Notes: generated by a model not told the origin, from the letters alone. A stretch of 64,000 nt of DNA from Deltaproteobacteria bacterium (GCA_016875395.1 VGRF01000002.1:207815-271814), one strand, 5' to 3'; shown: positions 345-60,934, numbered from the stretch's first letter. Numbers and translations: made by a program.

Positions 345-1088
345 ATGGCGCAAGTGAAGAAGACTCTGATCGTTACGCGCTTCGATCCCGACAAGGATCA
401 AGCGCCGCGCACGCAGAAGTACGAGATCTCGATCGAGGACGACGCGAAGGTTCTCGACGCGCTGAATCAGATCAAAGACCACGTCGACCCGACGCTCTCG
501 CACCGCTGGTCGTGCCGGATGGCGGTTTGCGGCAGCTGCGGCATGAACGTGAACGGCAAGCCGAAGCTCACCTGCAAGGATCCGATCTCGGCCTACGGCG
601 ACGTCATCGAGGTCACGCCGCTCGCGAGTTTCCCCGTGGTGAAGGACCTCGTCGTCGAGCTCGAAGGCTTCATGGACAAGTTCAAGAAGGTGAAGCCTTG
701 GATCATGGTGGCGAAGGAGCGGGCGGTGGAAGCCGGCCCGACCAAGCAGTCGCCCGACGAGCTCGCCGACTTCAAGCAGTTCAGCATGTGCATCAACTGC
801 ATGCTCTGTTACTCGGCATGCCCCGTCGTCTCGAACGAGCCGGACTTCCTCGGGCCCGCCGCGATCGCGATCGGGCACCGGTACAACCAGGACACGCGCG
901 ACGAAGGCGCGCGTGAGCGCAACGAGATCTTCCGCGACGACGGTGGCGTGTTCTCGTGCTCGTACGCGAACGAGTGCAGCGAGGTCTGCCCGAAGCACGT
1001 CGATCCGTCGGCGGCGATCCAGCAGGCGAAGCTCAACAACGTGCTCGACTGGGCCAAGAGCTTCGTCGTCCCGCGAGGAGGCAAGTGA
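345..1088 (+). CDS. frdB: succinate dehydrogenase/fumarate reductase iron-sulfur subunit
   Basis: 247-aa ORF with three Fe-S cysteine clusters (CRMAVCGSCG, CINCMLCYSACP, CSYANECSEVCP). Confidence 0.9.
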   Translation: MAQVKKTLIVTRFDPDKDQAPRTQKYEISIEDDAKVLDALNQIKDHVDPTLSHRWSCRMAVCGSCGMNVNGKPKLTCKDPISAYGDVIEVTPLASFPVVKDLVVELEGFMDKFKKVKPWIMVAKERAVEAGPTKQSPDELADFKQFSMCINCMLCYSACPVVSNEPDFLGPAAIAIGHRYNQDTRDEGARERNEIFRDDGGVFSCSYANECSEVCPKHVDPSAAIQQAKLNNVLDWAKSFVVPRGGK

Positions 1089-1528
1089 TGCACGCGAGAC
1101 CGCGCCTCGACGCGATGCGCCCGAAGAAAGAAGGCGCGACCCGCACCGCCGATCCGCGTCCGCCGGATCGCTTCCCGTTCGGCGGCAACTACGGGCCGTA
1201 CCTGTTGTTCGGCAGCTGCGGCGCGTTCCTGCTGTTCACCTCGCTGATCGCGATCGAGTTCGTGATGGCGCTCGGCGGCGGCCAGGCAAAGTACGAAGCG
1301 TTCATGTCGCGCATCCAAGGCGGCGCCTATCGGGCGTACTTCTGGATCGCGCTCGTCGCGCTGATCTGGTTCACGGTGCGCTTCTTCCGCCTGTTCCCGA
1401 AGACGCAGCCGTACCGGCTCGGGCCGTTCAAGCGCCCGCCGGACGCGGTCCTGCTCACCGGCCTGCTCGGCGCGTTCGTCGTGCTCAACCTCGCCGTCGC
1501 GGTGATTCTCGGAGGCGTGCTCGGATGA
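1088..1528 (+). CDS. frdC: fumarate reductase membrane anchor subunit C
   Basis: ATG at 1088 overlaps the frdB stop (TGATG). About 146 aa with three hydrophobic helices and an E. coli-type FrdC layout. The longer ORF start at 956 lies inside frdB and is rejected. Confidence 0.7.
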   Translation: MHARPRLDAMRPKKEGATRTADPRPPDRFPFGGNYGPYLLFGSCGAFLLFTSLIAIEFVMALGGGQAKYEAFMSRIQGGAYRAYFWIALVALIWFTVRFFRLFPKTQPYRLGPFKRPPDAVLLTGLLGAFVVLNLAVAVILGGVLG

Positions 1529-1875
1529 AAGCGCTGATGCTCAAGCTCGAGCCCTTGATCTGGCTGCTCTTCGGCGCGGGCATGATGGTGGGCGGCTTCG
1601 TGCTGCCCGCGTTCATCGCGACCGTCGGCCTCGGCCTGATCGGCAACGAGGCCGCCTACTCCTACGACCGCATGTACGCGTTCTTCTCGAACCCGATCGC
1701 GAAGCTGGCCGCGGTCGCCGCGATGGCGCTGCCGCTCTGGGGCGGCGTCCACCACCTGCGCCACGTGTGGATCGACTTCGGCGGGTTGAAGACGGACGGC
1801 ATCGTCGGCGGACTGCTCTACCTGCTCGCGCTCGGCGGCAGCGTCGCGGCGATCGTCGCGGTCGTCACGCTGTAA
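1525..1875 (+). CDS. frdD: fumarate reductase membrane anchor subunit D
   Basis: ATG at 1525 overlaps the frdC stop (ATGA). 116 aa; EPLIWLLFGAGMM and LPLWGGVHHLRHVWIDF resemble FrdD. Confidence 0.8.
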   Translation: MKALMLKLEPLIWLLFGAGMMVGGFVLPAFIATVGLGLIGNEAAYSYDRMYAFFSNPIAKLAAVAAMALPLWGGVHHLRHVWIDFGGLKTDGIVGGLLYLLALGGSVAAIVAVVTL

Positions 1876-1885
1876 GCCGCTGCGC

Positions 1886-3088
1886 ATGGCGAGCAATCCC
1901 GGCAGACCGCTTGCTGGGCTGAGGATTCTCGACCTCACGCGCGTCGTCGCGGGTCCGTTCGCGACCGCGATCTTCGCGGACCTCGGCGCCGAGGTGATCA
2001 AGATCGAGGCGCCGCGCACCGGCGACGACTACCGCGCGGGCCCGTCGCCGCCGGGGCAGACCTCGCTCTCGTTCCAGAACAACAACCGCGGCAAGCGCTC
2101 CATCACGCTCGACGTGCGCACGTCTGAAGGGCGCGAGTTGTTACTGAAGCTCGTCGACCGCGCCGATGCGCTCGTCGAGAACTTCCGCGCGGGCTACCTG
2201 GCGAAGTGCGGCCTCGGCGCGGACGTGCTGCAGGCGCGCAATCCGCGCCTCGTGGTCGCCGCGATCAGCGGCTTCGGGCAGACCGGGCCGCGCGCCGGCG
2301 AGCCGAGCTACGACATCGTCGCGCAGGCGACCGGCGGCCTGCTCGCGATGACGGGCTTCCCCGACGCCACACCCGTTCGCGCAGGCGGCGCCACCGCGGA
2401 CTTCGTGGGCGGCCTCTACCTCGCGCTCGGCGTGGTCGTCGCGCTGCTCGAGCGCGAGCGCACCGGCATTGCACGCGTGCTCGATCTCTCGAACCAAGAC
2501 TGCATCTTCGCGATCGCCGATTCCGCCGCGACGATCTACGCCGGCATCGGCGCGAAGATGGAGCGCGTCGGCAACGCGCACCCGTTCACGTCGCCGTACG
2601 ACTGCTTCGCCACGAGCGACGGCTTCGTCGTAGTGGGCACCGCCAGCAACAAGCTCTTCCGTAAGCTGTGCGAAGGCATCGCGCGCCCCGAGCTCGGGCG
2701 CGACGAGCGCTTCAAGAGCCACCGCATGCGCGCCGCGAACCGGCCCGAGCTCACCGCGATCCTCGCCGCGTGGATGCGCGCGCGCAGCTGTGACGAAGTG
2801 CTCGCCGCGCTCGGCCCGCGCGGCGTCGACGTGCCCGTCGCGCGCGTCTCCTCGCCGCACGAGCTGCTCGATGACCCGCAGCTCGTGGCGCGCGGCATGA
2901 TCGAGCGCCACCCGCACCCGCAGCTCGGCGAGGTCGTGTTCCACGGCAACGCGCTGAAGCTCTCGGGCGCCGTACCGCGCGAGCGCGCGCTCGCGCCGGA
3001 GCTGGGTGAAGCGAACGGGGAAGTGTTCGGCGAGATCGGCGTGACGGCGGGGGAGTTGGCGGGGCTGAGGGAGCGTGGGGTGGTGTGA
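1886..3088 (+). CDS. class III CoA-transferase (CaiB/BaiF family)
   Basis: 400-aa ORF. N-terminal LRILDLTRVVAGPFATAIFADLGAEVIKIE is the family III CoA-transferase signature. Confidence 0.85.
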   Translation: MASNPGRPLAGLRILDLTRVVAGPFATAIFADLGAEVIKIEAPRTGDDYRAGPSPPGQTSLSFQNNNRGKRSITLDVRTSEGRELLLKLVDRADALVENFRAGYLAKCGLGADVLQARNPRLVVAAISGFGQTGPRAGEPSYDIVAQATGGLLAMTGFPDATPVRAGGATADFVGGLYLALGVVVALLERERTGIARVLDLSNQDCIFAIADSAATIYAGIGAKMERVGNAHPFTSPYDCFATSDGFVVVGTASNKLFRKLCEGIARPELGRDERFKSHRMRAANRPELTAILAAWMRARSCDEVLAALGPRGVDVPVARVSSPHELLDDPQLVARGMIERHPHPQLGEVVFHGNALKLSGAVPRERALAPELGEANGEVFGEIGVTAGELAGLRERGVV

Positions 3089-3516: not shown

Positions 3517-5388
3517 TCACGGCTCCACGCTTCGGAGCGCGCGCTTCGCGATTTCGTGGTACTCGGGGCCGAGCAGCAGCCGCGCCTGCCAGAGATCGAA
3601 CGCAGCCTTTGCGCCTTGGGGAGCGGTCGGATCGCTCGCGTCCTCAGCCAATGGCTTGAAGCCGCCAAACAAAAAGCACGGCTCGCCCTTCGCGAACCCT
3701 TCCCTTCGCACGTTCCAGCCGAGATAGACGCCTCGCTTCTCCTCGAGCGCCCACAGCCGAATGCCCACGGCGTCGTTCCCATCTGCGTCCGTCTTCGGCA
3801 CGAGCGGGTCCCACCCCTCTCCCACCACCGCTGGCGGCACGCGCGCGTAGTCGACGCGCTGCACGTTGTTAGGTCGCGGCTCGTTCGCAGCCGCCTCGCG
3901 CAGCTCGCCTTGCGCGAGGCGCGGCCACACGCTCGCAGGCGGCTCGGCCTCGCCGCGCACCCACCGCTCCATCGCGACGACGAGCGCGCGGATCACGGGC
4001 GAGTACTTCACCGGGTTCGCGGGCAGCTCGCACCAGGGCGCAGTCATGCCCGGCGCGTGCGAGGCGCCGGCGATGAAGTACGCGCGCACGTTCTCCGGGA
4101 ACGCGACGTCGTGGCCGGCGCCGTCCGTGCCCACGAGCGACGCGCCGGCCTGCCAGAACTCGGCGCTGGTGTCGACGTGCATCAGCTTCGGGCACGATTT
4201 CGTCTCGCCGCAGCGCGCGAAGATGCCGTCGCGCGCGCTCGTCACGGGATCGGTCGTCACGGCGTACGTGAACGGAAACTGGTTGCCCGGCACGCGCTGC
4301 TCTTCGTGCGCGCGCGAGAAGCGTCCGGGCTGGCCCCAGCGCCAATTCGTGTAGGTCTTGCGCGAGCCCGCGATCACGGGGAGCACGCCTTCGAACAGCG
4401 CGCGGCCCTCGCCGTCGACGTGGAAGCCCTGCCACAGCAGGTCGCGCAGGTAGCGGCCCGACTGCGAGAAGCCGATCGCGAGCGCGCGCTTCACTTCGCC
4501 CGCGAGTGGATTCGGCGTTCCGCGCGCGTCGGTCTTGGCGAAGCGCAGGAACGAGATCACGTCGCGCGTCGCAGCGAAGCCGAGGCCCGTAACAAGCGGG
4601 TCGCGAGCGGTGTAGACGATCTCGTAGATCGCACCCGCGTCCATGTCCGAGGGGCGGTCGATCTCGAGCGTGCGCGCGTCGATCACGCGAATCGCACTCG
4701 CATCGAGCATGCGCGGCGCGTCGGGCTGGCGCGCACGCACGCTCACGCTGACCTGCGGCGCCTCGACGCTCGCGAGCGCATATGGGAGCGCGATGCGCGC
4801 GGGCGTCGTGGTGTGATCGAACACGATCTCGAGCTGCACCGGGCCCGAGATCGGCGCGTCGCCATCGCGCGCGATCGGAAAGCGCGCACTCATCAGGCCG
4901 GGGCCGACGACGTCCGCCTGCCAACCGATCCACACGAGCGTGAAGCCGCGCTTCAGCGCGAAGCCGTTGCCCGGGTCGCTCGTGCCGTCGCTCGGCTCGC
5001 CCGGAGTGAACGAAACCGCCGCGTCGTTGAGCGACGCCATCGCCGCCTTGCGCCCGCGGTTCAGCACGTCGAGCAGCAGCGTGCCGTTCGCGCGCGCCGC
5101 GTCCTTCGGGCGCAGGATCACGACATCCGTGTCGTACGCGATGCGACCGCGCGCATCGCGCGGCGCGAGGGCGAGGTCCACGATTCCCGAGCTCGCCGCG
5201 TGCGCCGGGTCGACACTCACGTGCGCGACCGCCTCGATCTTCTCGTACGCGCCCGCCTCGCCGAATGCCGCACCGCCGAACGCGTCGCCACGCGCGCGAA
5301 TCTCGAAACGCTCGACGCGCGCGGCCGGCGCCTCCGCCTCCGCGAGCGCAGCGAACATCAGCACAGCGAGTGCAAACCTGAGCCTCAC
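3517..5388 (-). CDS. secreted alpha/beta-hydrolase-fold protein
   Basis: GTG at 5388 overlaps the upstream stop (GTGA) and is preceded by GAGGTG. Signal-like N-terminus VRLRFALAVLMFAALAEA. GFSQSG nucleophile elbow. The longer 858-aa ORF N-terminus is Arg-rich noise. Confidence 0.7.
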   Translation of the reverse strand: MRLRFALAVLMFAALAEAEAPAARVERFEIRARGDAFGGAAFGEAGAYEKIEAVAHVSVDPAHAASSGIVDLALAPRDARGRIAYDTDVVILRPKDAARANGTLLLDVLNRGRKAAMASLNDAAVSFTPGEPSDGTSDPGNGFALKRGFTLVWIGWQADVVGPGLMSARFPIARDGDAPISGPVQLEIVFDHTTTPARIALPYALASVEAPQVSVSVRARQPDAPRMLDASAIRVIDARTLEIDRPSDMDAGAIYEIVYTARDPLVTGLGFAATRDVISFLRFAKTDARGTPNPLAGEVKRALAIGFSQSGRYLRDLLWQGFHVDGEGRALFEGVLPVIAGSRKTYTNWRWGQPGRFSRAHEEQRVPGNQFPFTYAVTTDPVTSARDGIFARCGETKSCPKLMHVDTSAEFWQAGASLVGTDGAGHDVAFPENVRAYFIAGASHAPGMTAPWCELPANPVKYSPVIRALVVAMERWVRGEAEPPASVWPRLAQGELREAAANEPRPNNVQRVDYARVPPAVVGEGWDPLVPKTDADGNDAVGIRLWALEEKRGVYLGWNVRREGFAKGEPCFLFGGFKPLAEDASDPTAPQGAKAAFDLWQARLLLGPEYHEIAKRALRSVEP

Positions 5389-6902
5389 GGCGTCACCTCG
5401 AAGATCAGCGCGTGCGCGTCGTTGTAGATCAGTCGAAAGCGCGCATCGCGCGCGAGCCCGAGCGCCATGGTGCGCTCCGCAGCGCTCTTCTGCACGAACA
5501 CGAAGCGCGCGCCGAAGTCGCGCGCCACGATCGTGTGCGCGTCGCTCGCGTCCCAGCGGTAGACGCGCAGCATCTTCGCGAAGAGCTAGGGGTCGAAGCG
5601 GTACAAGAAGATCGGATCGAGGGCCTCGATGTACGTGCCGTTCGGGCGGTAGTAGTAAAGCGGCGCGAACGGGATCCAGAAGTTGTGGTAGACGACGTCG
5701 CTCGGCTGCGCGCGGCGATCGAGGAACGCGATCGCGGGGCGCAGCTTCTCGGCAGGCGCTTCCGCCGCCGCGATGCGCGCGGGGAGCGCGGGCAGCGTTC
5801 GCGCAGCGCCGAGCGCGATGCAGAGCGCCAGTGCGCCGCCGAGCGCTGCGCAGTGTCCGCTCCGCAACAACTCGCGCGGGCGGGATTCGCCGAAGCACTC
5901 GCTCGCGGCGCGCCAGGCGGCGAGCACGGCGACGGGCACGAGGAAGAACGCGAAGCGATTCGCGAGCCCGCACGCGAGCAGCAGCGCCGCAGCGAAGCCG
6001 AACAGCGTGAGCGCTTCGCTGGACGGCGGCGTGACGCGCCAGCGCGCGAGCAGCGCAGCGCCTGCGGCGAGCGCGCCCGCCCACACGGGCCACAGTTGCA
6101 AGATGCCCGCGAGCGAGATCGGCATCAGCTCGCTGCCGAACACGTCCGGCGGCACGTCGGCGCGCGCGCCGGAAACGCTGCGCGCCACTTCAATCGCCTG
6201 GTCGAAGGCGATCGAGAGGTTGTTGGGGAAGTAGGGATGCAGCAGGGACGCGGCGATGATTCCGAGCGCGATGCCCGCCGCCGGCTTCCACGGCAGCGGC
6301 TGCCCACGCATTCGCGACGCGAGCGTGTGGGCGATGGGCAACGCGAGCAGCGTGAGGAACGAGGTGTGCGCGAGCGTGTGCGCCGCGGCGACGAGCGCGA
6401 GCGTCTTCCAGCGCCCCTCGAGCACGAGCACGATCTCCACGAGCAGCAAGGCGAGGCCTAACAGGTGTGGACGCACCTTCACGAGGTGCAGCCAGATCCA
6501 CGGCTCGCTCGCGGCGAGCAAGAGCACGGCCGCCCACGCGAAGCGCACCCGCAGGCGCGCGAGCGCGAAGCCGAACGCGCCGAGCACGAGCGCGCCGAGC
6601 GCGAGCGCCGCGCGCTTCGCGCCGGGCACCGAGGCGTTCTCGCCGACGAACGGGATCAGCGCGACGTGAAAGAGAAAGTCCTTGTCGCTGTAGCGATCGC
6701 GCCAAGTGCTGAATGCGGTCTGCGGGAACTCGCGGCGCACGCCGTGCTCGGCGAGCTGCTGCGCCGCGCGCGCGTGGAAGTAGCTGTCGCCGTCGTAGAG
6801 GCGCGGCGATGCGAATTGGAAGTGCGCGAGCGCGGCAAAGAAGAGCAGCAGCGCGGCGCCGAGTGCGATGCGGTCCCGCGCGGTCGGCGACGGCGTCGTC
6901 AC
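5385..6902 (-). pseudogene. polytopic membrane protein, GT-C/PMT-like glycosyltransferase candidate, interrupted by an in-frame TAG
   Basis: ORFs 5586-7223 and 5385-5573 are in the same frame, separated only by a TAG (cta at 5586-5588): ..FLYRFDP*LFAKMLRVYRWD... Many TM helices, with LYDGDSYFH in the first loop. GTG start at 6902 and the stop at 5385 are both in GTGA overlaps with neighbouring genes. Confidence 0.6.
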
Positions 6903-7939
6903 TTCGGCGTCGTACTCGCGGCTGGCGTCGGGTCCGCCCAGTGCACGACGACGGGAATGCGCGCCGGCAACTGCCTGTCTGGCCGCGCCTCCACGAACTC
7001 GCGGAACTCGTCGAGCTGCAATCCCGGCGGCTCGCTCCAGAACGACGCGCGCTGGGTCGTCCAGAGCAGCTCGGGCCCGAAGCCGGCCAGGTGTGCGGCG
7101 CGGAGCTCCGCTCCGGACCCGGTCTCGGACGGCTCGCACAGTCCTTGCGTCTTCGCGTCGTCTGCGAGCTTCGCGAGGATGGCGTCGCGAATTCGCGCCT
7201 CGCGCTCGAAGGTCGAGAGCCACTCGCCGCGCTCCAGTGCGCGCTGGATCTCGAGTGCGTAGAGGAGGGCGAGCGCGAGCTCACAGGGGCCGCCGCGCTC
7301 CGGGTCGTGCTCGATCGAGACCGCGAGATCGCGCTCCGGGCGCTGCACCACCAGCGCGAGCTCCGCGAGGAACTCGCGGCGCGCGGTGTCGATCGCGGCG
7401 TCGACCTCGGCGCTGGGAACGCCGAGACGCGTGGCGCGCATCTTCACGAAGTCGGTACCGAGCAGCGTCAGGAACGCGCGCGTCTGCAGAGGCTCGCCGC
7501 TCGGATGCGTGCCCTGATAACTCGCCTGGATGCCGTCCACCTCGCCCCACTTCGTCGACGCGCGCGACACCTCCTCGAGCTCGAGAGCGATCTTCCACTC
7601 GTTCTGCCCCGCGGCGTACTCGACCTCGCGCTTGGTCTGCTCGTACTGCGCCCAGAGCGCGTCCGCGACCGAGACCTGGCGGGGCAAGTTGAGTGCGGAG
7701 AACACGTAGAAGTCGAGGCGCAGCGCGGGGTCCTCACCCGCGTAGCTCGCGCCGAAGCCGGCCTCCGCTTCCGCAATGTCCGAGCGCCGGGCGAGATCGA
7801 AGGAGCCGACGCGAGCGGGCAGCGCGTACTCGGCGCTCGAGGTGCGCACCGCCGGGGCGCGCTGCGCTGAGGGCGCCGCGAGCGGCGAAGCGCACGCGAG
7901 CGCGAGGCAGAGCGGGATCAGGGCGACGAGTCGAGGCAC
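6899..7939 (-). CDS. lipoprotein of unknown function
   Basis: GTG at 7939 gives VPRLVALIPLCLALAC with a lipobox. 346 aa; no family recognised. Lies in the operon between the GT2 and membrane GT genes. Confidence 0.6.
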   Translation of the reverse strand: MPRLVALIPLCLALACASPLAAPSAQRAPAVRTSSAEYALPARVGSFDLARRSDIAEAEAGFGASYAGEDPALRLDFYVFSALNLPRQVSVADALWAQYEQTKREVEYAAGQNEWKIALELEEVSRASTKWGEVDGIQASYQGTHPSGEPLQTRAFLTLLGTDFVKMRATRLGVPSAEVDAAIDTARREFLAELALVVQRPERDLAVSIEHDPERGGPCELALALLYALEIQRALERGEWLSTFEREARIRDAILAKLADDAKTQGLCEPSETGSGAELRAAHLAGFGPELLWTTQRASFWSEPPGLQLDEFREFVEARPDRQLPARIPVVVHWADPTPAASTTPK

Positions 7940-7980: not shown

Positions 7981-8700
7981 TCAGCCTGCCTTCAGGCGCG
8001 TGAAGCGATGCGCGACGATCGCGCTGACCGCTCGCAGCGCGTCGCTCGCGCGGATTTTCTTGCCCTCGCGGTAGCTGCGCGCGCGGTAGCGGATCGGCAC
8101 TTCGTAGAAGCGAGCGCCGGTGCGATGCAGCTTGGCGGTGAGCTCGGCCTCGATCGTGAACGTGGCGGCCGTGAGGTGCAGCGGCTTCACGAGCTCGGCG
8201 CGCATCGCTTTGTAGCCGGTGTAGAGGTCGGTGAAGTTGGTGTTGTAGACGACGTTCGCGGTGAGCGTGATCAGCTTGTTCGCGAGCGTGGTCCAGAAGT
8301 AGTTGACGCTGTGCTCGGCGCCGAGGAAGCGCGAGCCGTAGACGGCGTCGGCGACGCCGGCCTCGATCGGCCCTAACAAGCTCGGGATGTCGCGGGGCGA
8401 GTACTCGAGGTCGGCGTCTTGGATCACGAGCACGTCGCCGCTCGCGAGCGCGAATCCGGTGCGCACCGCCGAGCCCTTGCCGCGCGGGCGCTCGTGACGC
8501 GCGCAGCGAACGCGCGAGTCCGCGGCGGCGAGCTCCGCGATCACGCGCGGCGTCGCGTCGCTCGAGCCGTCGTCCACGATCACGACCTCGAGGTCGTACG
8601 CAGAGAGCGCCTCGCGCACCGCGTCCACCACGGCGCGCAGCGTGCGCTCCTCGTTCAGCGCTGGAATCACTACCGAGACGCGCAGCGGGCGGGACGTCAT
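7981..8700 (-). CDS. family 2 glycosyltransferase (polyprenol-phosphate sugar synthase-like)
   Basis: 239 aa; VSVVIPALNEE, VIVDDGSSD and VIQDADLEY motifs typical of DPM1/ArnC-like GT2 enzymes. Confidence 0.85.
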   Translation of the reverse strand: MTSRPLRVSVVIPALNEERTLRAVVDAVREALSAYDLEVVIVDDGSSDATPRVIAELAAADSRVRCARHERPRGKGSAVRTGFALASGDVLVIQDADLEYSPRDIPSLLGPIEAGVADAVYGSRFLGAEHSVNYFWTTLANKLITLTANVVYNTNFTDLYTGYKAMRAELVKPLHLTAATFTIEAELTAKLHRTGARFYEVPIRYRARSYREGKKIRASDALRAVSAIVAHRFTRLKAG

Positions 8701-13252: not shown

Positions 13253-13645
13253 CTAGTCGGCTGCGGGCGGCGTGACCTGCGCGCGCGCGAGCTCGTCCGC
13301 GGTCTCGCGCAGCTGCACGAGCCAGCCCGCATCGCCGCGCGCGAGGTGCGTGTGGAAGCGCAGCGGCGCGGCGACGCCTTCGCGCAGGAACATCGTCTCG
13401 ACCAGTGCGTCGTCCTCCGCGACTGCGGCGGCGCCGATGGCCGGCGGCTCTTCTCGCGCGCTCGCCCCTAACAACTGAGCGAGAGCCGACTCGTCGGGGC
13501 TCGCGAGCTGCGCAGCGCCCGCCGCATCTCCCGCTACCGCCGCGCTCCAGAACTCGAGCGCGACTTCCTCGGGCGCCGGCGCGGGCTCGGCGCACGCGAG
13601 CAGCGCAGCCAGGACGGCCGCGAGCGTGAGGCGTGCCGTGAGCAT
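13253..13645 (-). CDS. lipoprotein of unknown function
   Basis: 130 aa; MLTARLTLAAVLAALLAC lipobox. Confidence 0.55.
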   Translation of the reverse strand: MLTARLTLAAVLAALLACAEPAPAPEEVALEFWSAAVAGDAAGAAQLASPDESALAQLLGASAREEPPAIGAAAVAEDDALVETMFLREGVAAPLRFHTHLARGDAGWLVQLRETADELARAQVTPPAAD

Positions 13646-13692
13646 GCGATCACCCTAGCAGCGATCACCGGCGTCTCCAGCCGAGCGGTTGT

Positions 13693-13748
13693 TAGAACCC
13701 GTCTCGAGATTCCTCTCGTCGCCGGGTGCGCGTCCGAGACGGGTTCTA
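13693..13748 (-). terminator. 14-bp perfect inverted repeat starting at the stop codon of the 13746-14147 gene
   Basis: TAGAACCCGTCTCG (13693-13706) and CGAGACGGGTTCTA (13735-13748) are separated by 28 nt. No U-tract, so intrinsic termination is not assured. Confidence 0.4.
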
Positions 13749-38654: not shown

Positions 38655-39800
<1,146 letters not shown>

Positions 39801-49415: not shown

Positions 49416-50322
49416 CTAGTCCGCCCACTCCGGCAGGCCACTCGCGCGCAGCGCCTCCAGATCGTGCGAGACCACCACCGTGAAGTCGTCCTCGGCGTCG
49501 AGCGCGGCGAGGTAGCGCCGCAGCTGCTCGGTGCGGCGCGTGTCTTCCGGCACGAGCAGGCCGCTGTAGAGGAAGCCCTTGCCGCGATTGGCGAGCAGCG
49601 CCTCGCGCGTGTTGGTGATGTCGCCGGACAGGATCCAGACGTGGTTGCCCACGGCGAACGCGAACATCGTCGAGCACGCCGTGTGCCCGCCGAGCGGAAT
49701 CAGCGCCGTGCCCGGGAACGCGGCGAGCGTGAGCAGGCCCTCGTCTCCCGCGCTCGTCGCTTCGAAGCACGAGCTTTCGACTAGCGCAGCGCCTTCCGCG
49801 GTGTTCGGGTCGCGCAGCGTCGCCTGCGGACTCCCCCTGATACACGCGCGCGCCGGGCGCCGGCCCGGCCGCGCACAGCGCCTCGATGCCCTGCGTGTGA
49901 TCGATGTGCAGATGCGTGAAGCCGAGGCCGCGCACGCGCGCGACCGCGCTGCCGATCTGCTCGGACACCGTGCCGTGCGGCGTCACCTGCCCGCCGCCCG
50001 AGAGCGTGCCTAACAACTCGCCGAACTCGACGGCGGCTGCGGCATCCATGCCCGCGTCGACCTCGAACAGCGAGCCATCGGGCCACTCGGCGAGAAACAC
50101 CGAGTGCGCGATGACGCCGCGCGCGAGCGGCTGCGAGGAGGTGTTGATCCAGCGCAGCGAGCGCGGACCGCCGGGAGCGCTCGTCAGCGAGCGCAGCTCC
50201 TCCGCGCTGGGAAGCCGCGGCGCGACCCGGCGGATCTGCAGGTGAGCGGGAACGATGCGCAGAGCGAGCGCGGCGAGTGCGAGCAAGGGCAGGGCGGCGG
50301 CGATGCGAAGTGCCCAGCGCAT
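49416..50322 (-). pseudogene. MBL-fold metallo-hydrolase broken by a 1-nt frameshift in a C5/G5 run
   Basis: The N-terminal ORF (THLHIDHTQG motif) turns to noise after ..GARVYQG. The C-terminal part (SPQATLRDPNTAEG...MFAFAVGNHVWILSGD...) continues in the +1 frame. Junction at the homopolymer 49833-49837. Confidence 0.65.
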
Positions 50323-52694: not shown

Positions 52695-55355
52695 CTACTT
52701 CGCGCTCTCCAGCCACTTCGCGAGCTGCGGCTTCACGCGTGCGTCGAAGGCGAGCGTCAGGTCGATCTGCTCGGTCGCCTTCCTCACGGCGCGCACCGCA
52801 GTCGGCACCGGGTTCTGCTTGAAGAACGCGGCGATGTCCTTTCGCGCGCCCCTCGTGGCGAGGGTCGCGGCGGCCTCGATCGGGCGCGCCACGAGCGCGG
52901 GCGGCAGCTTCTTGCGCAGCGCGACGAAGCGACGCTTGAAGAACTCCCAGGTCGCGGGCGCCGCGTTCGGGTTCGCGAGCTGTGCCGCGAGCACGAGGCC
53001 CACGTCCTGCGCGCCGATGTCGTCCGTGAGGCACTGCGCGTGCGTGCGCTGCACGAGCTCTTTGCTGCGGAACTCCGCGAGCGCCATCAGCATGCGCCGG
53101 CTCTCGAGCGGCGTGGCAGCGTCCTTGCGCGCCGCGACGTAGCGGTCGTAGAGCGCGGCGTCGCCGCACGACGCCGCGATCGTGATCGCGGCCGCCGCGA
53201 GCTCGGGCTCGACGCTGCCGCGGTCCGCGAGGTACGCCGCCACGAGCTCGGCAGCCTGCCCGCGCGCGGCGGCGTTCTCGCCGACATCGCCGACGAGCGC
53301 GAACAGCACCGCGCGGCGGCGCCGCGTGTCGTCGCTCTCGCGTGCGCTCGCCGCGAGGCCGAGCTGCGCGAGCGCGGGCCCGAACGTGACGGCGATGCGC
53401 GCGCGCAGCTTCTGCTCCGCGTCCGCGCCGAGCGTGCGCTTCGCTGCGCGCGCGATGCCCTCGAGCGCGGGCCGCAGCGCGACGAGCACGTCCGCGTCCG
53501 GCTCGTCGCCGAGCGAGAGCGCGAAGCCGAGGAAGCTCGCGAGATCGCAGTGGCCCGCGCGCAGCGAAGCCCAGAGGTGCCCGACGAGCCCTTGCCTCTC
53601 GACCGAGGTGAGCTCCTTCTTCGCCTGTGCGAGCGCCGAGAGCTCCGCGGCCGTGTGGAGCGGGCGAATGAACGCGGACTCCTCGGCGTTTCCGTACAGG
53701 AAGCGCGGCGTCTCGCCTTCGACCTCGAATTCGCCGCGCGAGCGCCCTAACAGCTGGCGCAGGCTGCGCGAGCCGACCGCGGTGCCGGCACGCCCGACCC
53801 ACGGAATCGGCCAGCGCTTCGTCGCGTCCTTGGCGGGTTTGTCGGCGTTGGGGCGGAAGCGTTCCTGCCGGTAGCGCACGAGCTGCTTGCCGCCGCGCTC
53901 GACGCGTTCGAGTCGCAGCAGCGGGAAGCCCGGCTGCTCGATCCACGCGCGCATGATCGGCTCGACGTTCTGCCCGGAGACCTCGGAGAGCGCGTTCCAA
54001 AGATCCGCCGCGACCGTGTTCCCCTCCTGGTGCTCGCGGATGTACTTGCGCACCCCCGCGCGGAACACTTCGGCGCCGAGGTAGCGCTCGATCATGCGCA
54101 CGACCGACGCGCCCTTCTCGTACGTGATCAGGTCGAAGTTCTCGGTCGCCTCGGCGGGGCTGCGCACCTCGACGTAGATCGGATGCGTCGAATCGAGCGC
54201 GTCCATGCCGAGCGCGGCGGCGCGGTCGTGCTGGAACGTCGACCACATGCTCCACTCGGGCTTCCACGCGTCGACGATCTGGTACGCCATCCAGGTCGCG
54301 AAGGCCTCGTTGAGCCAGAGGTCGTCCCACCAGCGCATCGTGACGAGATCGCCGTACCACATGTGCGCGAGCTCGTGACAGATCACCTCGGCGACGCGCT
54401 TCAGCTCGAGCGTCGTCGTGCGCGCGGGGTCGACGAGCAGCAGCGTCTCGCGGAAGAACACGGCGCCCGCGTTCTCCATCGCACCCGCCTCGAACTCCGG
54501 GCACGCCACGAGGTCGAGCTTCTCGTACGGGTAGGGCATGTCGAAGTACGTCTCGAGTCGCGCGAGCGTCTCGCGCGCGCACTCGAGCGCGAACGCGGTG
54601 AGGTTCTCCTTGCCCGGCACGTGCCAGATGCGGATCTCGGTCTCGCCGCAGTGCACGGGCTCCGAGGCGACGAGCTCGCCCACCGCGAGCGCGAGCAGAT
54701 ACGTCGAGAGCGGCGGCGTCTGCGAGAACACCACCGTCTTCCGTCCGCCCTCGCGGGGCACGATCTTCTCGACGGGGTTGTTACTGAGCACGGTGTTCGC
54801 GTGCGCAGTCGTCACCGAGAGCCCGAAGCGCGCCTTCAGCGCGGGCTCGTCGAAGCACGGGAACACGCGGCGCGCCTCGGTCGACTCCATCTGCGTGAAG
54901 GCGTACTTGCGCTCGCCCGCGCGCGCGGCGTAGAAGCCGCGCAGATCGGTCGCGAGCTTGCCCTTGAACTCGAGCGCGAGCGTCACCTCGCCCGCGGGCG
55001 TTGTCTCCGCGAGCACGATGTCCACCGTCTCGCGATCGGGGCGCATCACCGCGCGCCCGCGAATCACGCGGTCGCCCACTTCGGCCTGCGCGCGCGTGAT
55101 GGTGATGCCCACCGCGTGCAGCTCGAGCGTTCGCTTCGGCCGCGCGAGATCGAGGTGATGCAGCACCTCGCCCGTGAACGCGGCGCTCTGCGCCGGGTCG
55201 ACCGCGATGTGCAGGTCGACCTCGACCGGGCGCGTGTCGGCGGGCAGGCGATACGCGCCGCGCTGCCGCTCGCTGCGCACGCGCCGCGCCTCGCGCCGGG
55301 CGGCGGGCGTCGCTTGCTTGCGTCCGGGTTGCTTCGCGCCGTCGCCCTTCGCCAC
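52695..55355 (-). CDS. pepN: aminopeptidase N (M1 family)
   Basis: GAMEN motif and HELAHMWYGDLV..WLNEAFA zinc site; 886 aa. Confidence 0.9.
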   Translation of the reverse strand: MAKGDGAKQPGRKQATPAARREARRVRSERQRGAYRLPADTRPVEVDLHIAVDPAQSAAFTGEVLHHLDLARPKRTLELHAVGITITRAQAEVGDRVIRGRAVMRPDRETVDIVLAETTPAGEVTLALEFKGKLATDLRGFYAARAGERKYAFTQMESTEARRVFPCFDEPALKARFGLSVTTAHANTVLSNNPVEKIVPREGGRKTVVFSQTPPLSTYLLALAVGELVASEPVHCGETEIRIWHVPGKENLTAFALECARETLARLETYFDMPYPYEKLDLVACPEFEAGAMENAGAVFFRETLLLVDPARTTTLELKRVAEVICHELAHMWYGDLVTMRWWDDLWLNEAFATWMAYQIVDAWKPEWSMWSTFQHDRAAALGMDALDSTHPIYVEVRSPAEATENFDLITYEKGASVVRMIERYLGAEVFRAGVRKYIREHQEGNTVAADLWNALSEVSGQNVEPIMRAWIEQPGFPLLRLERVERGGKQLVRYRQERFRPNADKPAKDATKRWPIPWVGRAGTAVGSRSLRQLLGRSRGEFEVEGETPRFLYGNAEESAFIRPLHTAAELSALAQAKKELTSVERQGLVGHLWASLRAGHCDLASFLGFALSLGDEPDADVLVALRPALEGIARAAKRTLGADAEQKLRARIAVTFGPALAQLGLAASARESDDTRRRRAVLFALVGDVGENAAARGQAAELVAAYLADRGSVEPELAAAAITIAASCGDAALYDRYVAARKDAATPLESRRMLMALAEFRSKELVQRTHAQCLTDDIGAQDVGLVLAAQLANPNAAPATWEFFKRRFVALRKKLPPALVARPIEAAATLATRGARKDIAAFFKQNPVPTAVRAVRKATEQIDLTLAFDARVKPQLAKWLESAK

Positions 55356-56517: not shown

Positions 56518-57056
56518 AGCGCGAGCCGCGCGATCTCGTCGCGCCGACGGGGCTCGTCGTAACGCAAGAAGAACTCGTCGAGCTGCGGCGGCGCAACGCG
56601 GGTGCCCGCGAGCATCGAGTGGACCTGCCCGCGGTGATGGATCTGGTGCGCGAACAAGTGCTCCAGTGCTGCGGGCAACGCCTCTTCGAACACGCCCTCG
56701 TCTCCGCGATCGAGGCCGACCGTGCGAGCGAGCGCGGCATCGCCCTGCGCATCGCAGTACGCGATGAGCCGGCGGTCGGACGCGAGCTGCTCGGCGGCGA
56801 GCGGCGCGATCTCGCCGTGCTCGCGCTCGCGCAGCGCGGTCCACGTCGCGAGCCCGCGCCCGGTCGCTTCGAGCTCGCCGAGGTAGTACGCGTCGACGCG
56901 CAGGATGTGATTCAGCGTGAGCATCAGCGAGGGGAAGAAGCTCACGCGCGGCGCGTGCAGCTCTTCGCGCGTGAGCTGGGCGCACGCGCGCAGCAGGCGA
57001 TCGTTCGACCACGCGTTGTTACGGGCGCAGGCGCGAAAGTGCGCGGCGAGGGTCAT
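56514..57056 (-). CDS. DinB family protein
   Basis: 180 aa. Four-helix DinB pattern with HILRVDAYY and HQIHHRGQV. Confidence 0.8.
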   Translation of the reverse strand: MTLAAHFRACARNNAWSNDRLLRACAQLTREELHAPRVSFFPSLMLTLNHILRVDAYYLGELEATGRGLATWTALREREHGEIAPLAAEQLASDRRLIAYCDAQGDAALARTVGLDRGDEGVFEEALPAALEHLFAHQIHHRGQVHSMLAGTRVAPPQLDEFFLRYDEPRRRDEIARLAL

Positions 57057-57121: not shown

Positions 57122-58477
57122 ATGACGCCGCTGCGCGCTTCCGGCTTCGCCTTCCGCGATCTGCGCGAGGTGCTCGCCAAGGCGAACGAACCGAAGAGCG
57201 GCGATCAGCTCGCGGGCATCGCGGCGGCGAGCGCGCAGGAGCGCGTCGCCGCGAAGCGCGCGCTCGCGGAGCTGCCGCTCGTGCGCTTCGTGGAGGAGTC
57301 CGTGATCGCGCCGGAGCGCGACGAGCTCACGCGCGCGTTCCTCGCGGAGCAAGACGCCGCGGCGTTCCGCTCGCTCGCGAACGTCAGCGTGGGCGAGCTG
57401 CGCGAGAAGCTGCTCGCGGGCGAGCTCGCGAGTGCCGAGGCGCAGGCGAAGCTGCGCCGCGCGCTCCTGCCCGAGCACGCCGCCGCCGTCGCGAAGCTCT
57501 GCTCGAACCTCGATCTCGCGCTCGCGGCGAAGCGGCTCCCTGTCGTCGCGAGCGCGCGCACGACGCTCGGCCTCGCGGGTCGCCTCGCTTCGCGCATTCA
57601 GCCGAATCACCCCGCCGATGCTGCGGACGGAATCCGTGCGGCGATCCTCGAGGGCCTCGCGTACGGCTCCGGCGACGCGGTGATCGGCGTGAATCCGGTC
57701 GAGGATCGCCTCGAGACGGTGGAGCGCATCGCGCGCGCGATCGACGGCGTGATGACGCCGCTCGGCGTTCCGACGCAGAGCTGTGTGCTCGCGCACGTGA
57801 CGACGCAGATGCGGGCCTTCGAGCGCGGCGCGCCGCTCGATCTCGTGTTCCAGTCGGTCGCTGGCACGCAGAAGGGGAATCGCGCGTTCGGCATCGACCT
57901 CGCGCTGCTGGGCGAAGCGACGGCGCTCGTGCGCGAGAAGGGGCGCATGAAGTCGCCGCACGTCTGGTACTTCGAGACGGGGCAGGGCTCCGAGCTCTCG
58001 AGCGACGCGCACGAGGGCGTCGATCAGGTCACGCTGGAGGCGCGTTGTTATGGCGTCGCGCGCCGCCATGCGCCGCTGCTCGTGAACACGGTCGTCGGCT
58101 TCATCGGCCCCGAGTACCTGTTCGACGCGCGCGAGATCGCGCGCGCGGCGCTCGAAGATCACTTCATGGGCAAGCTGCTCGGCGTCCCGATGGGCGCCGA
58201 CGTCTGTTACACGAACCACGCCGAGGCCGATCAGAACGACCTCGAGAGCACCGCGATGCTGCTCGCGAGCGCTGGCTGCAACTACTTCATGGGCGTGCCG
58301 CTCGGCGACGACTGCATGCTCCACTACCAGAGCACGAGCTATCACGACGTCGCGGCGCTGCGTGAGCTGTTGGGCCTGCGCCCCGCGCCCGAGCTCGAGG
58401 CGTGGCTCGAAGCGCGCGGTCTCATGCGCGACGGCAAGCTCACCGCGCGCGCCGGCGATCCGCGGGTGCTCGCGTGA
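57122..58477 (+). CDS. eutB: ethanolamine ammonia-lyase large subunit
   Basis: 451 aa with EutB-wide similarity (..FETGQGSELS.., ..CYTNHA..). Confidence 0.9.
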   Translation: MTPLRASGFAFRDLREVLAKANEPKSGDQLAGIAAASAQERVAAKRALAELPLVRFVEESVIAPERDELTRAFLAEQDAAAFRSLANVSVGELREKLLAGELASAEAQAKLRRALLPEHAAAVAKLCSNLDLALAAKRLPVVASARTTLGLAGRLASRIQPNHPADAADGIRAAILEGLAYGSGDAVIGVNPVEDRLETVERIARAIDGVMTPLGVPTQSCVLAHVTTQMRAFERGAPLDLVFQSVAGTQKGNRAFGIDLALLGEATALVREKGRMKSPHVWYFETGQGSELSSDAHEGVDQVTLEARCYGVARRHAPLLVNTVVGFIGPEYLFDAREIARAALEDHFMGKLLGVPMGADVCYTNHAEADQNDLESTAMLLASAGCNYFMGVPLGDDCMLHYQSTSYHDVAALRELLGLRPAPELEAWLEARGLMRDGKLTARAGDPRVLA

Positions 58478-59178
58478 GCGACGAGCTCACGCGCCTCCTG
58501 CGCTCGACGCCCGCGCGGCTCGATCTCGGCCGCGCCGGGGAGCGCCCGCGCACCGCGAGCGCGCTCGACTTTCGCGAAGACCACGCGCGCGCGCGCGATG
58601 CCGTGCACGGCGCATGGAGCGAGGCGTTTCGCGAGCAGCTCGCAGCGCGCGGCTGCCTGTTCGTGCAATCCGCCGCGCCCGATCACGCGACGTACTTGCG
58701 CCGCCCCGATCTCGGGCGCGCGCTTGCCGATGGCGAAGCCGCGCGCATCGCCGCAGCGCGCGTGCCGGGTGCCGTCGCGCAGATCGTCGTGAGCGACGGC
58801 CTCTCTGCACGCGCCGCCGAGGCGCAGCTCGCACACGTGTGGCCCACGCTCGTGCGCGGCCTCGAGCGGCTCGGCCCGCTCGCGCGGCCCGTCGCCGTCA
58901 CGCTCGGCCGCGTCGCGATCGCCGACCGCATCTGCGAAGCGAGCGGTGCGCGGCTCGCGGTGCACCTGATCGGAGAGCGCCCCGGCCTCAAGGCCGCCGA
59001 GAGTCTCGGTTGTTACGTGACGCTCGCGCCGAACGCCGCCACGACCGACGCCGATCGCAAGTGCATCAGCAACATCCACGCGCGCGGCCTCGCACCCGAC
59101 GAAGCCGGCGCCGCGATCGTCGAGGTGTGCGAGAAGATTCTGCGCGCGGGGAGTAGTGGGACGAAGGTGGAGCTGTAG
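58474..59178 (+). CDS. eutC: ethanolamine ammonia-lyase small subunit
   Basis: GTG at 58474 in a GTGA overlap with eutB. IGERPGL..SLGCY..ISNIH pattern. Confidence 0.85.
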   Translation: MSDELTRLLRSTPARLDLGRAGERPRTASALDFREDHARARDAVHGAWSEAFREQLAARGCLFVQSAAPDHATYLRRPDLGRALADGEAARIAAARVPGAVAQIVVSDGLSARAAEAQLAHVWPTLVRGLERLGPLARPVAVTLGRVAIADRICEASGARLAVHLIGERPGLKAAESLGCYVTLAPNAATTDADRKCISNIHARGLAPDEAGAAIVEVCEKILRAGSSGTKVEL

Positions 59179-59410: not shown

Positions 59411-59412
59411 GG

Positions 59413-59655
59413 CTACGAGACGACGACTTGGTGAGTGCCGACGAACTCCGACTCGAGAACGGGTTCGCCGTCCTCCAGCAGAAGCTCGACGACCTCGCGC
59501 AGGTTCTGCGCGAGCTCCTCCATGGTGGCGCCCTGCGAGTGAGCGCCGGGGAATCCCGGGATGTGGCCCACGAAGAGGCCCGTTTCGAGATCCTTCTCGA
59601 TGACGGCGGTGAACTTTCTCACCTGATGAACTCCGCGGGACCGGGGTTCGGACAC
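59413..59655 (-). CDS. hicB: HicB family antitoxin
   Basis: 80 aa; KFTAVIEKDLETGLFVGHIPGFPGAHSQGATMEEL pattern. 2 nt upstream of hicA. Confidence 0.75.
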   Translation of the reverse strand: MSEPRSRGVHQVRKFTAVIEKDLETGLFVGHIPGFPGAHSQGATMEELAQNLREVVELLLEDGEPVLESEFVGTHQVVVS

Positions 59656-59692
59656 GCTACTCCCGACATCCGCAATTGGCGACGGCGTCGAA

Positions 59693-60934
59693 TCACCTCT
59701 CCAGCGGCACCTCCGGAGCCACCGCCCACCACATCAGCCCCGACACGAAGTAGAGCGCGGCGACGCTCGCGAGTGGGATGTTCCAGCTGCCGAAGTGCTC
59801 GAGGCAGTAGCCGAACACGACCGGGCTCGTGGCGCCGCCGAGGTTGCCGAACATGTTCATCGCGCCGCTGACGACGCCGCCGTGGCGGCCGCCGATCGCG
59901 AGGCAGGTCGACCATGCGGACGCGATGCCGAGCGCGGCGAAGCCCGCGGCGGCCGTCAGGAACGCGGTCGCAACGCGTGCGCTCGGGGTCTCGATCGCGC
60001 CGAGAATCATCAGCGCGGCGATGGGCAAGCCGACGATCCCCGGCGCGCGCAGGCCGAAGCGGAGCCCGCGGCGGCGCACGAGCGCGTCGGAGACGAGGCC
60101 GCCGAAGAAGCAGCCTGCGGCGATCGCGAGCCACGGCAGCGCCGCGAGCCAGCTCGTCTGCGCGAGGCTGAAGCCGCGCGCCTTCTCGAGGTACTGCGGC
60201 AGCCACGTCATGAAGAAGTACCAGCCGTAGATCGCGCAGAAGTACATCGCGCAGATCACGATCAGGTTGCGGCTGCGCGCGAAGCGCCCCCACGGCACGC
60301 CCGTGTGCGGCTCCTGCGCGGGCGGTCCGATCTCCGCGACCTCGGCTGCGCTGACGTCGCGGTGCTCGCGCGGGTCGTCGCGCATCCACGCGTACCACGC
60401 GAGCGCCCACACGCCGCCTAACAAGCCGAACGCGACGAAGGACTCGCGCCAGGTGAAGCGCCCGAGCATCGCGCCCACGATCGGCTGCGCGATCGCGCTG
60501 CCGAGCGCGCCCGCCGCGACCGTGAGCCCGAACGCGCTCCCGCGCTCGCGCTCGGGCAGCCAGCGCCGGAACGCGCTCGCGAGGGTCGGCAACACGCCAG
60601 CCTCGCCCATCCCGAACAAGAAGCGGATGCCGATCAGCGAGAAGAACCCTCGCGCCGCTGCGGTGGCTGCGGTCCACGCGGACCACCACAGCACGATGCG
60701 CGTCATCATGCGGCGCGAGCCGAAGCGATCCGCGAGCCAGCCGCTCGGCACCTCGAACAGCGCGTAGGCGAGCGTGAACGCGCTGAACGCGTAGCCCATC
60801 TGCGTGGGAGTCAGCGAGAGATCGCGCTGGATCGCCGAGCTCGACAGCGAGATCGCGACGCGGTCGATGTAGGCGAGCGCCATCGTGCCGAGCGCGAAGG
60901 CGAGCATCGTGTAGCGGGTGCGCCAGAAGAGCAT
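59693..60934 (-). CDS. MFS transporter
   Basis: 413 aa, 12 predicted TM helices, GWLADRFGSRR loop motif. Confidence 0.85.
   Translation of the reverse strand: MLFWRTRYTMLAFALGTMALAYIDRVAISLSSSAIQRDLSLTPTQMGYAFSAFTLAYALFEVPSGWLADRFGSRRMMTRIVLWWSAWTAATAAARGFFSLIGIRFLFGMGEAGVLPTLASAFRRWLPERERGSAFGLTVAAGALGSAIAQPIVGAMLGRFTWRESFVAFGLLGGVWALAWYAWMRDDPREHRDVSAAEVAEIGPPAQEPHTGVPWGRFARSRNLIVICAMYFCAIYGWYFFMTWLPQYLEKARGFSLAQTSWLAALPWLAIAAGCFFGGLVSDALVRRRGLRFGLRAPGIVGLPIAALMILGAIETPSARVATAFLTAAAGFAALGIASAWSTCLAIGGRHGGVVSGAMNMFGNLGGATSPVVFGYCLEHFGSWNIPLASVAALYFVSGLMWWAVAPEVPLER

Follow-up and report, generated by a model that had tools for sequence, protein, structure and literature searches.

The window, the 64-kb stretch of contig VGRF01000002.1 (Deltaproteobacteria bacterium, GCA_016875395.1) analysed here, has a G+C content of 70.9% and carries an ordinary set of housekeeping genes, through which the hexamer TTGTTA (TAACAA on the opposite strand) is scattered at high density. 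Genes that we called from codon statistics number 60 and occupy 88-89% of the DNA, leaving about 11% non-coding. The hexamer occurs 27 times, 15 times on the plus strand and 12 on the minus strand, which amounts to 4.2 copies per 10 kb or about one per 2.4 kb (Table 1). Base composition predicts 3.0 copies (order 0), a first-order Markov model 1.0 and a second-order model 0.36, and TTGTTA ranks first among the hexamers of the window by observed/expected ratio. The remaining top words are sub-words either of its long forms, TTGTTAGG (11 copies) and TTGTTACGG (7 copies), or of a second word, TTATCAGG. Spacing between copies is irregular, with a coefficient of variation of 0.78 where random placement gives 0.97 (p = 0.12); the evenness described for the uptake signal sequences (USS) of other bacteria is not significant here. 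All 27 copies listed in the initial annotation of this DNA exist, with three of them shifted (54778, not 54779; 19123, not 19133; 26676, not 26686), as do its nine CTGTTA/GTGTTA variants, one of which starts at 806 instead of 807. Our results also agree with its flank counts, its balanced strand use and its irregular spacing.

The over-representation is real, and it survives the within-gene shuffle of synonymous codons that had been proposed as a check, a null that preserves each protein and the codon counts of each gene. Across 400 such shuffles TTGTTA appeared 1.04 times on average (standard deviation 1.02, maximum 5) against about 26 observed, a 25-fold excess with z = 24, the highest of 2080 strand-symmetric hexamers. 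An analytic expectation based on the proteins and the codon usage of the window gives 0.83 copies within called genes, where 22 are found, and TTG is expected beside TTA 0.1 times if the two codons are independent, compared with 12-15 times seen. Given that only 3 of the 18 one-mismatch neighbours are enriched (CTGTTA 4-fold, TTATTA 12-fold, TTGTTG 1.7-fold), with the rest at or below expectation, the core is a sharp YTRTTA, with the long forms TTGTTAGG(G) and TTGTTACGG.

Every frame assignment made in the initial annotation was reproduced. Fifteen of the 27 copies are in-frame Leu-Leu (TTG-TTA), four are Cys-Tyr (xxT-TGT-TAy) and one reads CTT-GTT-Axx; on the antisense strand three take the form xxT-AAC-AAC and two xTA-ACA-Axx, so that the word uses five of the six frame and strand classes, the remaining one being closed to it by a stop codon. 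The last two copies are intergenic, which in a window with about 11% non-coding DNA indicates no preference for spacers. Three of the in-frame copies sit in open reading frames (ORFs) that were absent from our gene calls and were first scored as intergenic. Two of these, 18835-19968(-) (Fpg glycosylase) and the TPR frame starting at 28742, were confirmed as genes by Pfam, and the third, 49378-50322(-), corresponds in position to a Lactamase_B gene called in an orthologous locus (L084).

Ten copies lie in other frames or antisense to genes where 0.73 are expected (p = 6e-9), and the antisense copies alone number five against 0.57 expected (p = 3e-4). Because of these ten copies, the constraint must act on the DNA word rather than on codons, as the initial annotation had proposed. 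The codons that the word demands (TTG, TTA, TGT, xxT, CTA, ACA, GTA) are all rare in the window. Of the 22 TTA codons in called genes, 12 follow TTG, 4 follow CTG and 3 belong to GAG-TTA-TCA-GG; four of the seven Cys-Tyr dipeptides carry the word, written xxT-TGT-TAy, as do 8 of the 30 Leu-Leu-Gly tripeptides.

The second word, TTATCAGG, has six copies in the window, where codon usage predicts 0.08. Two frames are represented among them, four of the six read CGAGTTATCAGG, and orthologous-site tables indicate that the word arises in place from CTG-TCG-GG. A single degenerate consensus, TTRTYAGG, joining TTGTTAGG with TTATCAGG was rejected, as the intermediates TTGTCAGG and TTATTAGG have no copies.

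Close relatives and the origin of new copies

DNA of the window was matched on JGI metagenome contigs from three samples, its molybdopterin oxidoreductase (50338-52602(-)) is identical to NCBI MBM4382307.1, and homologues of its 2-oxoglutarate dehydrogenase E1 protein carry the names Myxococcota, Myxococcales or Deltaproteobacteria. Since these independent samples contain the same copies, and related words are also present in assemblies from JGI, NCBI and ENA, a sequencing or assembly artefact is ruled out.

Two control sets were drawn up, one of unrelated loci of at least 66% G+C from a genome-contig scan with the E1 protein (best match about 53% identical among the matches listed), and one of word-free outgroups from a metagenome-contig scan with the molybdopterin oxidoreductase (at most 73% identical among the matches listed). 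TTGTTA occurs 7 times in 524 kb of the former, with 30 expected at order 0, and is absent from 403 kb of the latter (57-73% oxidoreductase identity), with 20 expected. High-GC genomes normally avoid TTGTTA, and its density in the window is an anomaly. A generic codon pair favoured throughout the clade, which the initial annotation had named as the outcome that would defeat its proposal, is excluded by this absence and by the off-frame enrichment.

Close relatives were gathered through homologous proteins and then the contigs encoding them; the resulting loci are syntenic with the window, come from independent samples or sources, and span at most 23 kb each. Codon shuffles were run separately on each locus. 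TTGTTA is enriched in three of these independent relatives, at 4-8 copies per 10 kb: L084 (92% oxidoreductase identity) has 9 copies against a shuffle mean of 0.17, L174 (92%) has 10 against 0.43 and L172 (88%) has 5 against 0.25. In relatives, 14 of 24 copies lie outside the Leu-Leu frame. The preferred word is CTGTTA in L086 (88%; 10 copies against 1.2, with only two TTGTTA) and TTATCA in L085 (87%; 5 against 0.41, together with other TTA words), and L173 (86%) carries three copies each of TTATCA (0.08 expected) and TTGTTA (0.19). By E1 identity, L168 and L169 (85%) show weak TTATCA, TTGTTG or TATCAG signals only, and L171 (74%) nothing related. TTATCA is the leading word in L085, L173 and L168 and is absent from L084. 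On this comparison the phenomenon is confined to a narrow clade and graded in strength, with a preferred word that differs between sister lineages, and the TTGTTA system is apparently young.

At the sites of the window copies, the relatives read CTGCTG, CTGCTC, CTGTTC, TTGTTG, TTGCTA or CTGTTA. The copy at 34789 is instructive: the outgroup L171 has GTC-TGC-TAC, L168 has GTT-TGC-TAT, L169 has GTC-TGT-TAT, and L170 and the window have GTT-TGT-TAT, a series in which different lineages keep different partial states of one conversion. Antisense copies derive from TCGTCA, TCGTGA and TCGTGC, with transversions involved and a Val to Leu replacement at 26676. Word-making changes are mostly synonymous, with both transversions and amino-acid replacements among them, and at one site in L084 and L174 five substitutions fell within twelve bases and produced cggTTGTTAcgg. 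Through a T to C change at the first position, L086 reads CTGTTA at four sites where other lineages have TTGTT[A/G], and the two TTGTTA that remain there are Asn-Asn sites, at which the first base is unable to change silently.

Copies are also retained. Between the window and L084, which have a third-position identity of 0.77, A/T third positions are kept at 10 of 17 places inside the word and 129 of 437 elsewhere (p = 0.013, a small sample), and TTG codons at 4 of 6 and 5 of 27 (p = 0.034, again on small numbers). No indels accompany the word copies in the orthologous-site comparisons. Given the partial states, the conserved third positions and this lack of indels, the word is both created and maintained by substitution in place and not by insertion.

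Several further features of these loci were observed. TTGTTG, chiefly as TTGTTGGG, is moderately enriched throughout the clade (the window, L084, L085, L086 and L169), including lineages poor in TTGTTA; several sites now reading TTGTTA or CTGTTA had TTGTTG as their older state, and it may represent an earlier form of the word. Among the window, L084-L086 and L168-L174, word-bearing lineages have a G+C content of 0.686-0.713 and weak or word-free sisters 0.720-0.734 (L173, with a weak signal only, stands at 0.734), and TTA/TAA trinucleotides number 12-37 per 10 kb in the former and 0.4-8 in the latter, more than the words explain. In L087 (22.3 kb, 74% G+C, 73% identity) the palindrome AAGTACTT has four copies against about 0.03 expected and may be an unrelated lineage-specific word. 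L088, L089 and L144 (70-72% identity) contain 16-20 TGATCA per 9-15 kb, against 1-2.5 expected from composition and 3-6 from a second-order Markov model, which may reflect a codon effect or another palindromic word.

Three gene-level differences were also seen. The radical SAM gene at 47279-49345(-) (688 amino acids) has an intein-like insert with Hom_end and LAGLIDADG_3 matches; the long form recurs in L084 and L085, and orthologues without the insert (352-356 amino acids) are found in L086, L168, L169, L173 and L174. The TPR-Ser/Thr kinase at 28742-33371(+) is in two frames in the window (28742-32470 and 32031-33371) and is a single ORF of about 1542 amino acids in L168-L171; a 5-nucleotide indel in this region separates the window from the near-identical contig L002, and the split reflects either a pseudogene or polymorphism or else an error of assembly. 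At 5240-5265 of L085 the palindrome TTATCATGATAA occupies an intergenic spacer beside an AAA_14/DUF4143 ATPase gene that is absent there in the window, an arrangement suggestive of a gene that was inserted together with its operator.

Table 1. Copies of TTGTTA, of the second word and of the CTGTTA/GTGTTA variants, in window coordinates
Word	Position	Strand	Frame and gene	State in relatives
TTGTTA	2138..2143	+	in-frame GAG-TTG-TTA-CTG (ELLL), CoA-transferase gene 1886-3088	
TTGTTAGG	3866..3871	+	antisense CCT-AAC-AAC, gene 3517-5388(-)	
TTGTTACGG	4590..4595	-	sense frame 1, CTT-GTT-ACG	
TTGTTAGGG	8374..8379	-	in-frame AGC-TTG-TTA-GGG, glycosyltransferase	
TTGTTAGGG	9356..9361	-	in-frame CCG-TTG-TTA-GGG, PQQ (pyrroloquinoline quinone) dehydrogenase	
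TTGTTAGGG	13469..13474	-	in-frame CAG-TTG-TTA-GGG	
TTGTTA	13689..13694	+	intergenic, between 13253-13645 and 13746-14147	
TTGTTACGG	19123..19128	-	in-frame CAG-TTG-TTA-CGG, Fpg glycosylase ORF	
TTGTTAGG	26676..26681	-	antisense GAC-CTA-ACA-AGT	GTG-ACG-AGC, so that the word required Val to Leu
TTGTTACGG	28212..28217	+	in-frame GAC-TTG-TTA-CGG	CTGCTG
TTGTTA	29531..29536	+	in-frame GAG-TTG-TTA-TTG, TPR ORF	CTGCTG/CTGCTC
TTGTTA	34789..34794	+	GTT-TGT-TAT (Val-Cys-Tyr), 2-oxoglutarate dehydrogenase E1	see text
TTGTTA	37129..37134	+	in-frame CAC-TTG-TTA-CGC	
TTGTTA	40978..40983	-	intergenic, between 39827-40942 and 41007-41444	
TTGTTAGGG	41944..41949	+	in-frame, pseudouridine synthase	CTGCTG/CTGCTC/CTGTTC
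TTGTTAGGG	43777..43782	+	in-frame	TTGTTG or CTGCTC
TTGTTAGG	44459..44464	-	in-frame	L168/L169 TTGTTA, L084 TTGCTA, L086 CTGTTA
TTGTTACGG	46653..46658	+	in-frame AAG-TTG-TTA-CGG, sigma-54 activator	common to L084; L085 CTGTTA
TTGTTACGG	48214..48219	+	antisense CCC-GTA-ACA-AGC, intein-bearing radical SAM gene	absent at L084/L085 orthologous site
TTGTTAGG	50011..50016	-	in-frame GAG-TTG-TTA-GGC, metallo-beta-lactamase orthologue	L084 TTGTTG
TTGTTACGG	51164..51169	-	GGT-TGT-TAC (Gly-Cys-Tyr), molybdopterin oxidoreductase	common to L084/L174/L172; L086 GTGTTA
TTGTTAGGG	52081..52086	-	in-frame	L174 TTGTTA, L084 TTGTTG, others CTGCTC/CTCGTC
TTGTTA	54778..54783	+	antisense AGT-AAC-AAC, M1 peptidase	conserved in 6/6 aligned relatives
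TTGTTACGG	57016..57021	+	antisense CGT-AAC-AAC, DinB-family gene	common to L084, L086
TTGTTA	58045..58050	+	CGT-TGT-TAT (Arg-Cys-Tyr), EutB	L084 TTGCTA, L086 CTGTTA
TTGTTA	59010..59015	+	GGT-TGT-TAC, EutC	L084 TTGTTA, L086 CTGTTA
TTGTTAGG	60419..60424	-	in-frame GGC-TTG-TTA-GGC, MFS (major facilitator superfamily) transporter	L084 CTGTTG, L086 GCAGTC
TTATCAGG (cgagTTATCAggg)	7515..7520	-	xxT-TAT-CAG-G	
TTATCAGG	23808..23813	+		L168 TTATCA, L169 CTATCA
TTATCAGG	38671..38676	-		
TTATCAGG	43067..43072	+	in-frame GAG-TTA-TCA-GGC	six relatives CTGTCG/TTGTCG/CTCTCG/CTTTCG
TTATCAGG	44026..44031	+	in-frame GAG-TTA-TCA-GGG	common to L085; L084 TTGTCA, L171 CTGTCC
TTATCAGG	63571..63576	-	in-frame GAG-TTA-TCA-GGC	
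CTGTTA	806..811	+		
CTGTTA	6459..6464	-	in-frame CTG-TTA-GGC	
GTGTTA	22455..22460	-		
CTGTTA	23042..23047	+	in-frame CTG-TTA-GGC	
GTGTTA	37534..37539	+	in-frame GTG-TTA-GGC	
CTGTTA	47638..47643	+		
CTGTTA	50770..50775	-	in-frame CTG-TTA-GGC	older state TTGTTG
CTGTTA	53748..53753	-	in-frame CTG-TTA-GGG	
CTGTTA	58204..58209	+		conserved in L084, L086

Possible causes of the excess

These observations show that double-stranded DNA in this clade is under a directional and sequence-specific force, which overrides codon bias and differs in its target from lineage to lineage. It turns tolerant sequence (Leu-Leu, Cys-Tyr, Asn-Asn, x-Thr-Ser, spacers) into the word irrespective of strand and frame, even though codon preferences oppose the change and an amino acid is sometimes replaced. 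Chance, artefact and a codon-pair or rare-codon-cluster effect are ruled out, and so is simple mutation bias, because a single word family is affected, its precursors are diverse and include transversions, and T to C reversals occurred in L086. The lineage-specific words (TTGTTA, CTGTTA, TTATCAGG) imply a recognising macromolecule with an evolving specificity. TTGTTA is most likely a genome-wide tag that is recognised by its sequence and has been driven to a high copy number, comparable to the DNA uptake sequences (DUS) or to HIP1, the highly iterated palindrome of cyanobacteria.

Among the mechanisms that could produce such a tag we favour a molecular drive of the uptake or recombination type, with a probability of roughly 35%. 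Fragments with the word would be taken preferentially, either by a DNA receptor or by a step that processes DNA as cells of the population exchange it, so that alleles gaining a word would be passed on by recombination more often than wordless alleles. Copies would then build up to about one per 2.4 kb and serve as a tag of self DNA; what is actually read may be a methylation step. This drive is favoured because transmission bias would explain thousands of rare-codon copies more easily than site-by-site benefit. The likeness to uptake sequences or to abundant binding or modification sites suggested in the initial annotation fits the anatomy, namely both strands, all frames, dialects and origin in place, and is an analogy.

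A number of points weigh against an uptake-type drive. Known uptake sequences are 9-12 nucleotides long, one per genome, ancient at the family level and placed in frames that use preferred codons (PMC2817400; Findlay and Redfield 2009). Unlike them, TTGTTA has a core of 6 nucleotides and long forms of 8-9, coexists with TTATCAGG, is AT-rich in a 71% G+C genome so that it forces rare codons, and is limited to a narrow, apparently young clade. It also lacks the inverted pairs that form terminators: there are none in the window, where the closest copies on opposite strands are 220 bp apart. Among the genes of the window we found no competence, pilin, restriction-modification, methyltransferase or nuclease candidates, except for the protein-repair PCMT, and no window gene ties the word to DNA uptake. 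Finally, two words whose strengths change separately from one sister lineage to the next are better explained by a mobile repertoire of methyltransferases than by one uptake receptor.

That repertoire is central to the explanation that we rank second, which is distinctly less likely than the uptake-type drive. Near-matches to the word would be resolved toward the full word by biased repair tied to a methyltransferase or to a sequence-specific mismatch nuclease, so that replication errors and heteroduplexes become new copies and the dialects reflect the variable, mobile enzyme set of each lineage. A model of biased repair by an enzyme pair has reportedly been put forward for HIP1 by Elhai. Short non-palindromic words of 6-8 nucleotides that contain adenine are typical targets of Type IIG, Type III and BREX (bacteriophage exclusion) methylases. 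The drive acts in the same manner on no fewer than two unrelated words, TTGTTA[C]GG and TTATCAGG, whose strengths differ independently between sister lineages (9 TTGTTA and no TTATCA in L084, 2 TTGTTA and 7 TTATCA in L085). Only three transition-type neighbours of the word are enriched, the others being depleted, and in cyanobacteria alternate HIPs track their cognate methyltransferases (PMC4390886). Against such repair, no enzyme of this kind is encoded in the window, and word-making includes transversions and several changes at one site. Moreover, known very-short-patch-type repair restores C and so pushes toward GC, whereas the word is AT-rich, and the repair-type drives known to us have modest effects.

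Somewhat less probable again is that each copy is useful, as a selected binding site for an abundant chromosomal protein with a role in nucleoid organisation, condensin loading or similar. The word is indeed orientation-independent and dispersed through housekeeping genes, its positions are conserved above background between the window and L084, and an AT-rich hexamer containing TpA might offer a distinctive, bendable site in 71% G+C DNA; Xu et al. have argued for selection and a role in chromosome structure in the case of HIP1 (PMC5861425). However, thousands of selected sites in a narrow clade, with a one-base switch in a sister lineage, would demand fast co-evolution of protein and sites, and the copies are spaced no more regularly than random and show no preference for the non-coding DNA.

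A role like that of Chi, modulating a RecBCD/AddAB-type nuclease so that the chromosome is protected and wordless foreign DNA degraded, is improbable. Chi is likewise a short, species-specific, over-represented word, found roughly once per 5 kb and differing between bacterial groups. Yet a 15:12 strand ratio has a probability of only 0.02-0.003 under the 75-80% skew expected of such a word, provided that the window lies on one replichore; GC skew is flat across the window. Known Chi sequences are also G-rich and built from common codons, so that in their case the enzyme has adjusted to its genome rather than the genome to the enzyme.

Context-dependent mutation during a drift to lower G+C, with clustered C to T and G to A changes turning CTG-CTG into TTG-TTA and no recognising agent, is slightly less probable still. 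Most word-making changes are transitions of this kind, and word-bearing lineages have a slightly lower G+C content and more TTA overall. Nevertheless, no other AT-rich hexamer is enriched, the same word arose from unrelated precursors (TCGTCA, TCGTGC, GCAGTC) with transversions, the four first-position T to C changes in L086 oppose an AT drift, and TTG stands beside TTA far more often than expected (12-15 times against 0.1). Least credible is a translational signal, in which a TTG-TTA-GGG/CGG cluster of rare codons, or a pair favoured through re-use of tRNA-Leu(UAA), slows ribosomes: 15 of the 27 copies are in-frame Leu-Leu followed by rare GGG or CGG codons and TTG-TTG pairs are frequent too, but the off-frame and antisense copies, the two intergenic copies and the 14 of 24 copies outside the Leu-Leu frame in relatives contradict it.

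Three further candidates were considered and rejected. Selection for off-frame or antisense stops (TAA in TAACAA, TGA-TAA in TGATAA) does not account for full identity over 6-9 nucleotides whatever the stop frame, and the CAA part of the word has no role in that model. Deamination of 5-methylcytosine at a CWG-type site (CTG to TTG, CTA or TTA) conflicts with the lack of CTA enrichment, the diverse precursors and the transversions. A comparison by eye with the consensuses of IHF (WATCAR-N4-TTR), the DnaA box, parS, Fur and dif gave no convincing match.

Returning to the favoured recognition tag, a bolder version of it, which we put forward tentatively and hold to be somewhat less likely than the uptake-type drive as such, is that a self-recognition tag has been newly born in an uncultured high-GC deltaproteobacterial or Myxococcota lineage and has been caught during its origin and dialect divergence. 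If so, the tag would extend uptake-sequence-like or methylation-read systems for the first time beyond Neisseriaceae, Pasteurellaceae and cyanobacteria. Sister lineages would stand at the stages of no word, weak TTGTTG or TTATCA, strong TTGTTA and a switch to CTGTTA, and the drive would be powerful enough to override codon bias and to replace some amino acids.

Comparison with known hyper-abundant words

The origin of hyper-abundant words such as DUS, USS and HIP1 is a long-standing question, and every such word known to us is of great age and established throughout a family or phylum. The relatives examined here range from lacking the word to carrying 8 copies per 10 kb, with one base-switched lineage and a second word that rises and falls independently, and an association analysis across such a series should be able to identify the gene responsible. 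As TTGTTA is essentially absent from other high-GC genomes, its density could also serve as a practical marker, helping to bin contigs of the clade and to flag recently acquired DNA. A literature search returned no report of TTGTTA/TAACAA as an over-represented bacterial word and, at the level of titles and abstracts, no uptake sequence reported for Myxococcota. What sets the word apart is that it is AT-rich in a 71% G+C genome, that it is apparently young and that the relatives show it in graded strength.

Its anatomy matches DNA uptake sequences best. The DUS of Neisseriaceae and the USS of Pasteurellaceae have a copy roughly every 1-2.4 kb, lie on both strands, mostly in genes and in several frames, shape the choice of codons and peptides, arise in place by point substitution, and form single-base dialects between related lineages (PMC2817400, PMC3630211). 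TTGTTA is likewise short, present on both strands, mostly genic and found in several frames, with effects on peptides, an origin in place and single-base dialects, and its excess (about 26 copies against 1.04, z = 24) goes beyond what proteins and codon usage account for.

The anatomy also matches HIP1 (GCGATCGC), for which a codon-aware excess of 15-300-fold, occurrence in all frames, conservation between genomes and alternate words in some lineages have been reported, and whose mechanism is debated between biased repair and selection (PMC5861425, PMC4390886). TTGTTA shares with it a large excess (25-fold), alternate words in sister lineages and A/T third positions conserved above background (in the small sample given above). 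Unlike HIP1, a GC-rich palindrome that embeds known methylation sites and is phylum-wide, TTGTTA is non-palindromic, AT-rich and clade-restricted. Chi and KOPS (FtsK-orienting polar sequences) are short, over-represented, species-specific words too, read by a DNA-translocating machine; they are strongly skewed with replication direction and made of common codons, and TTGTTA has a 15:12 strand ratio in the window and rare codons. Given that it lacks the length, the single word per genome and the preferred codons of DUS/USS, and the palindrome and GC-richness of HIP1, TTGTTA is a member of neither family, and belongs with both to the general kind of hyper-abundant genomic recognition words.

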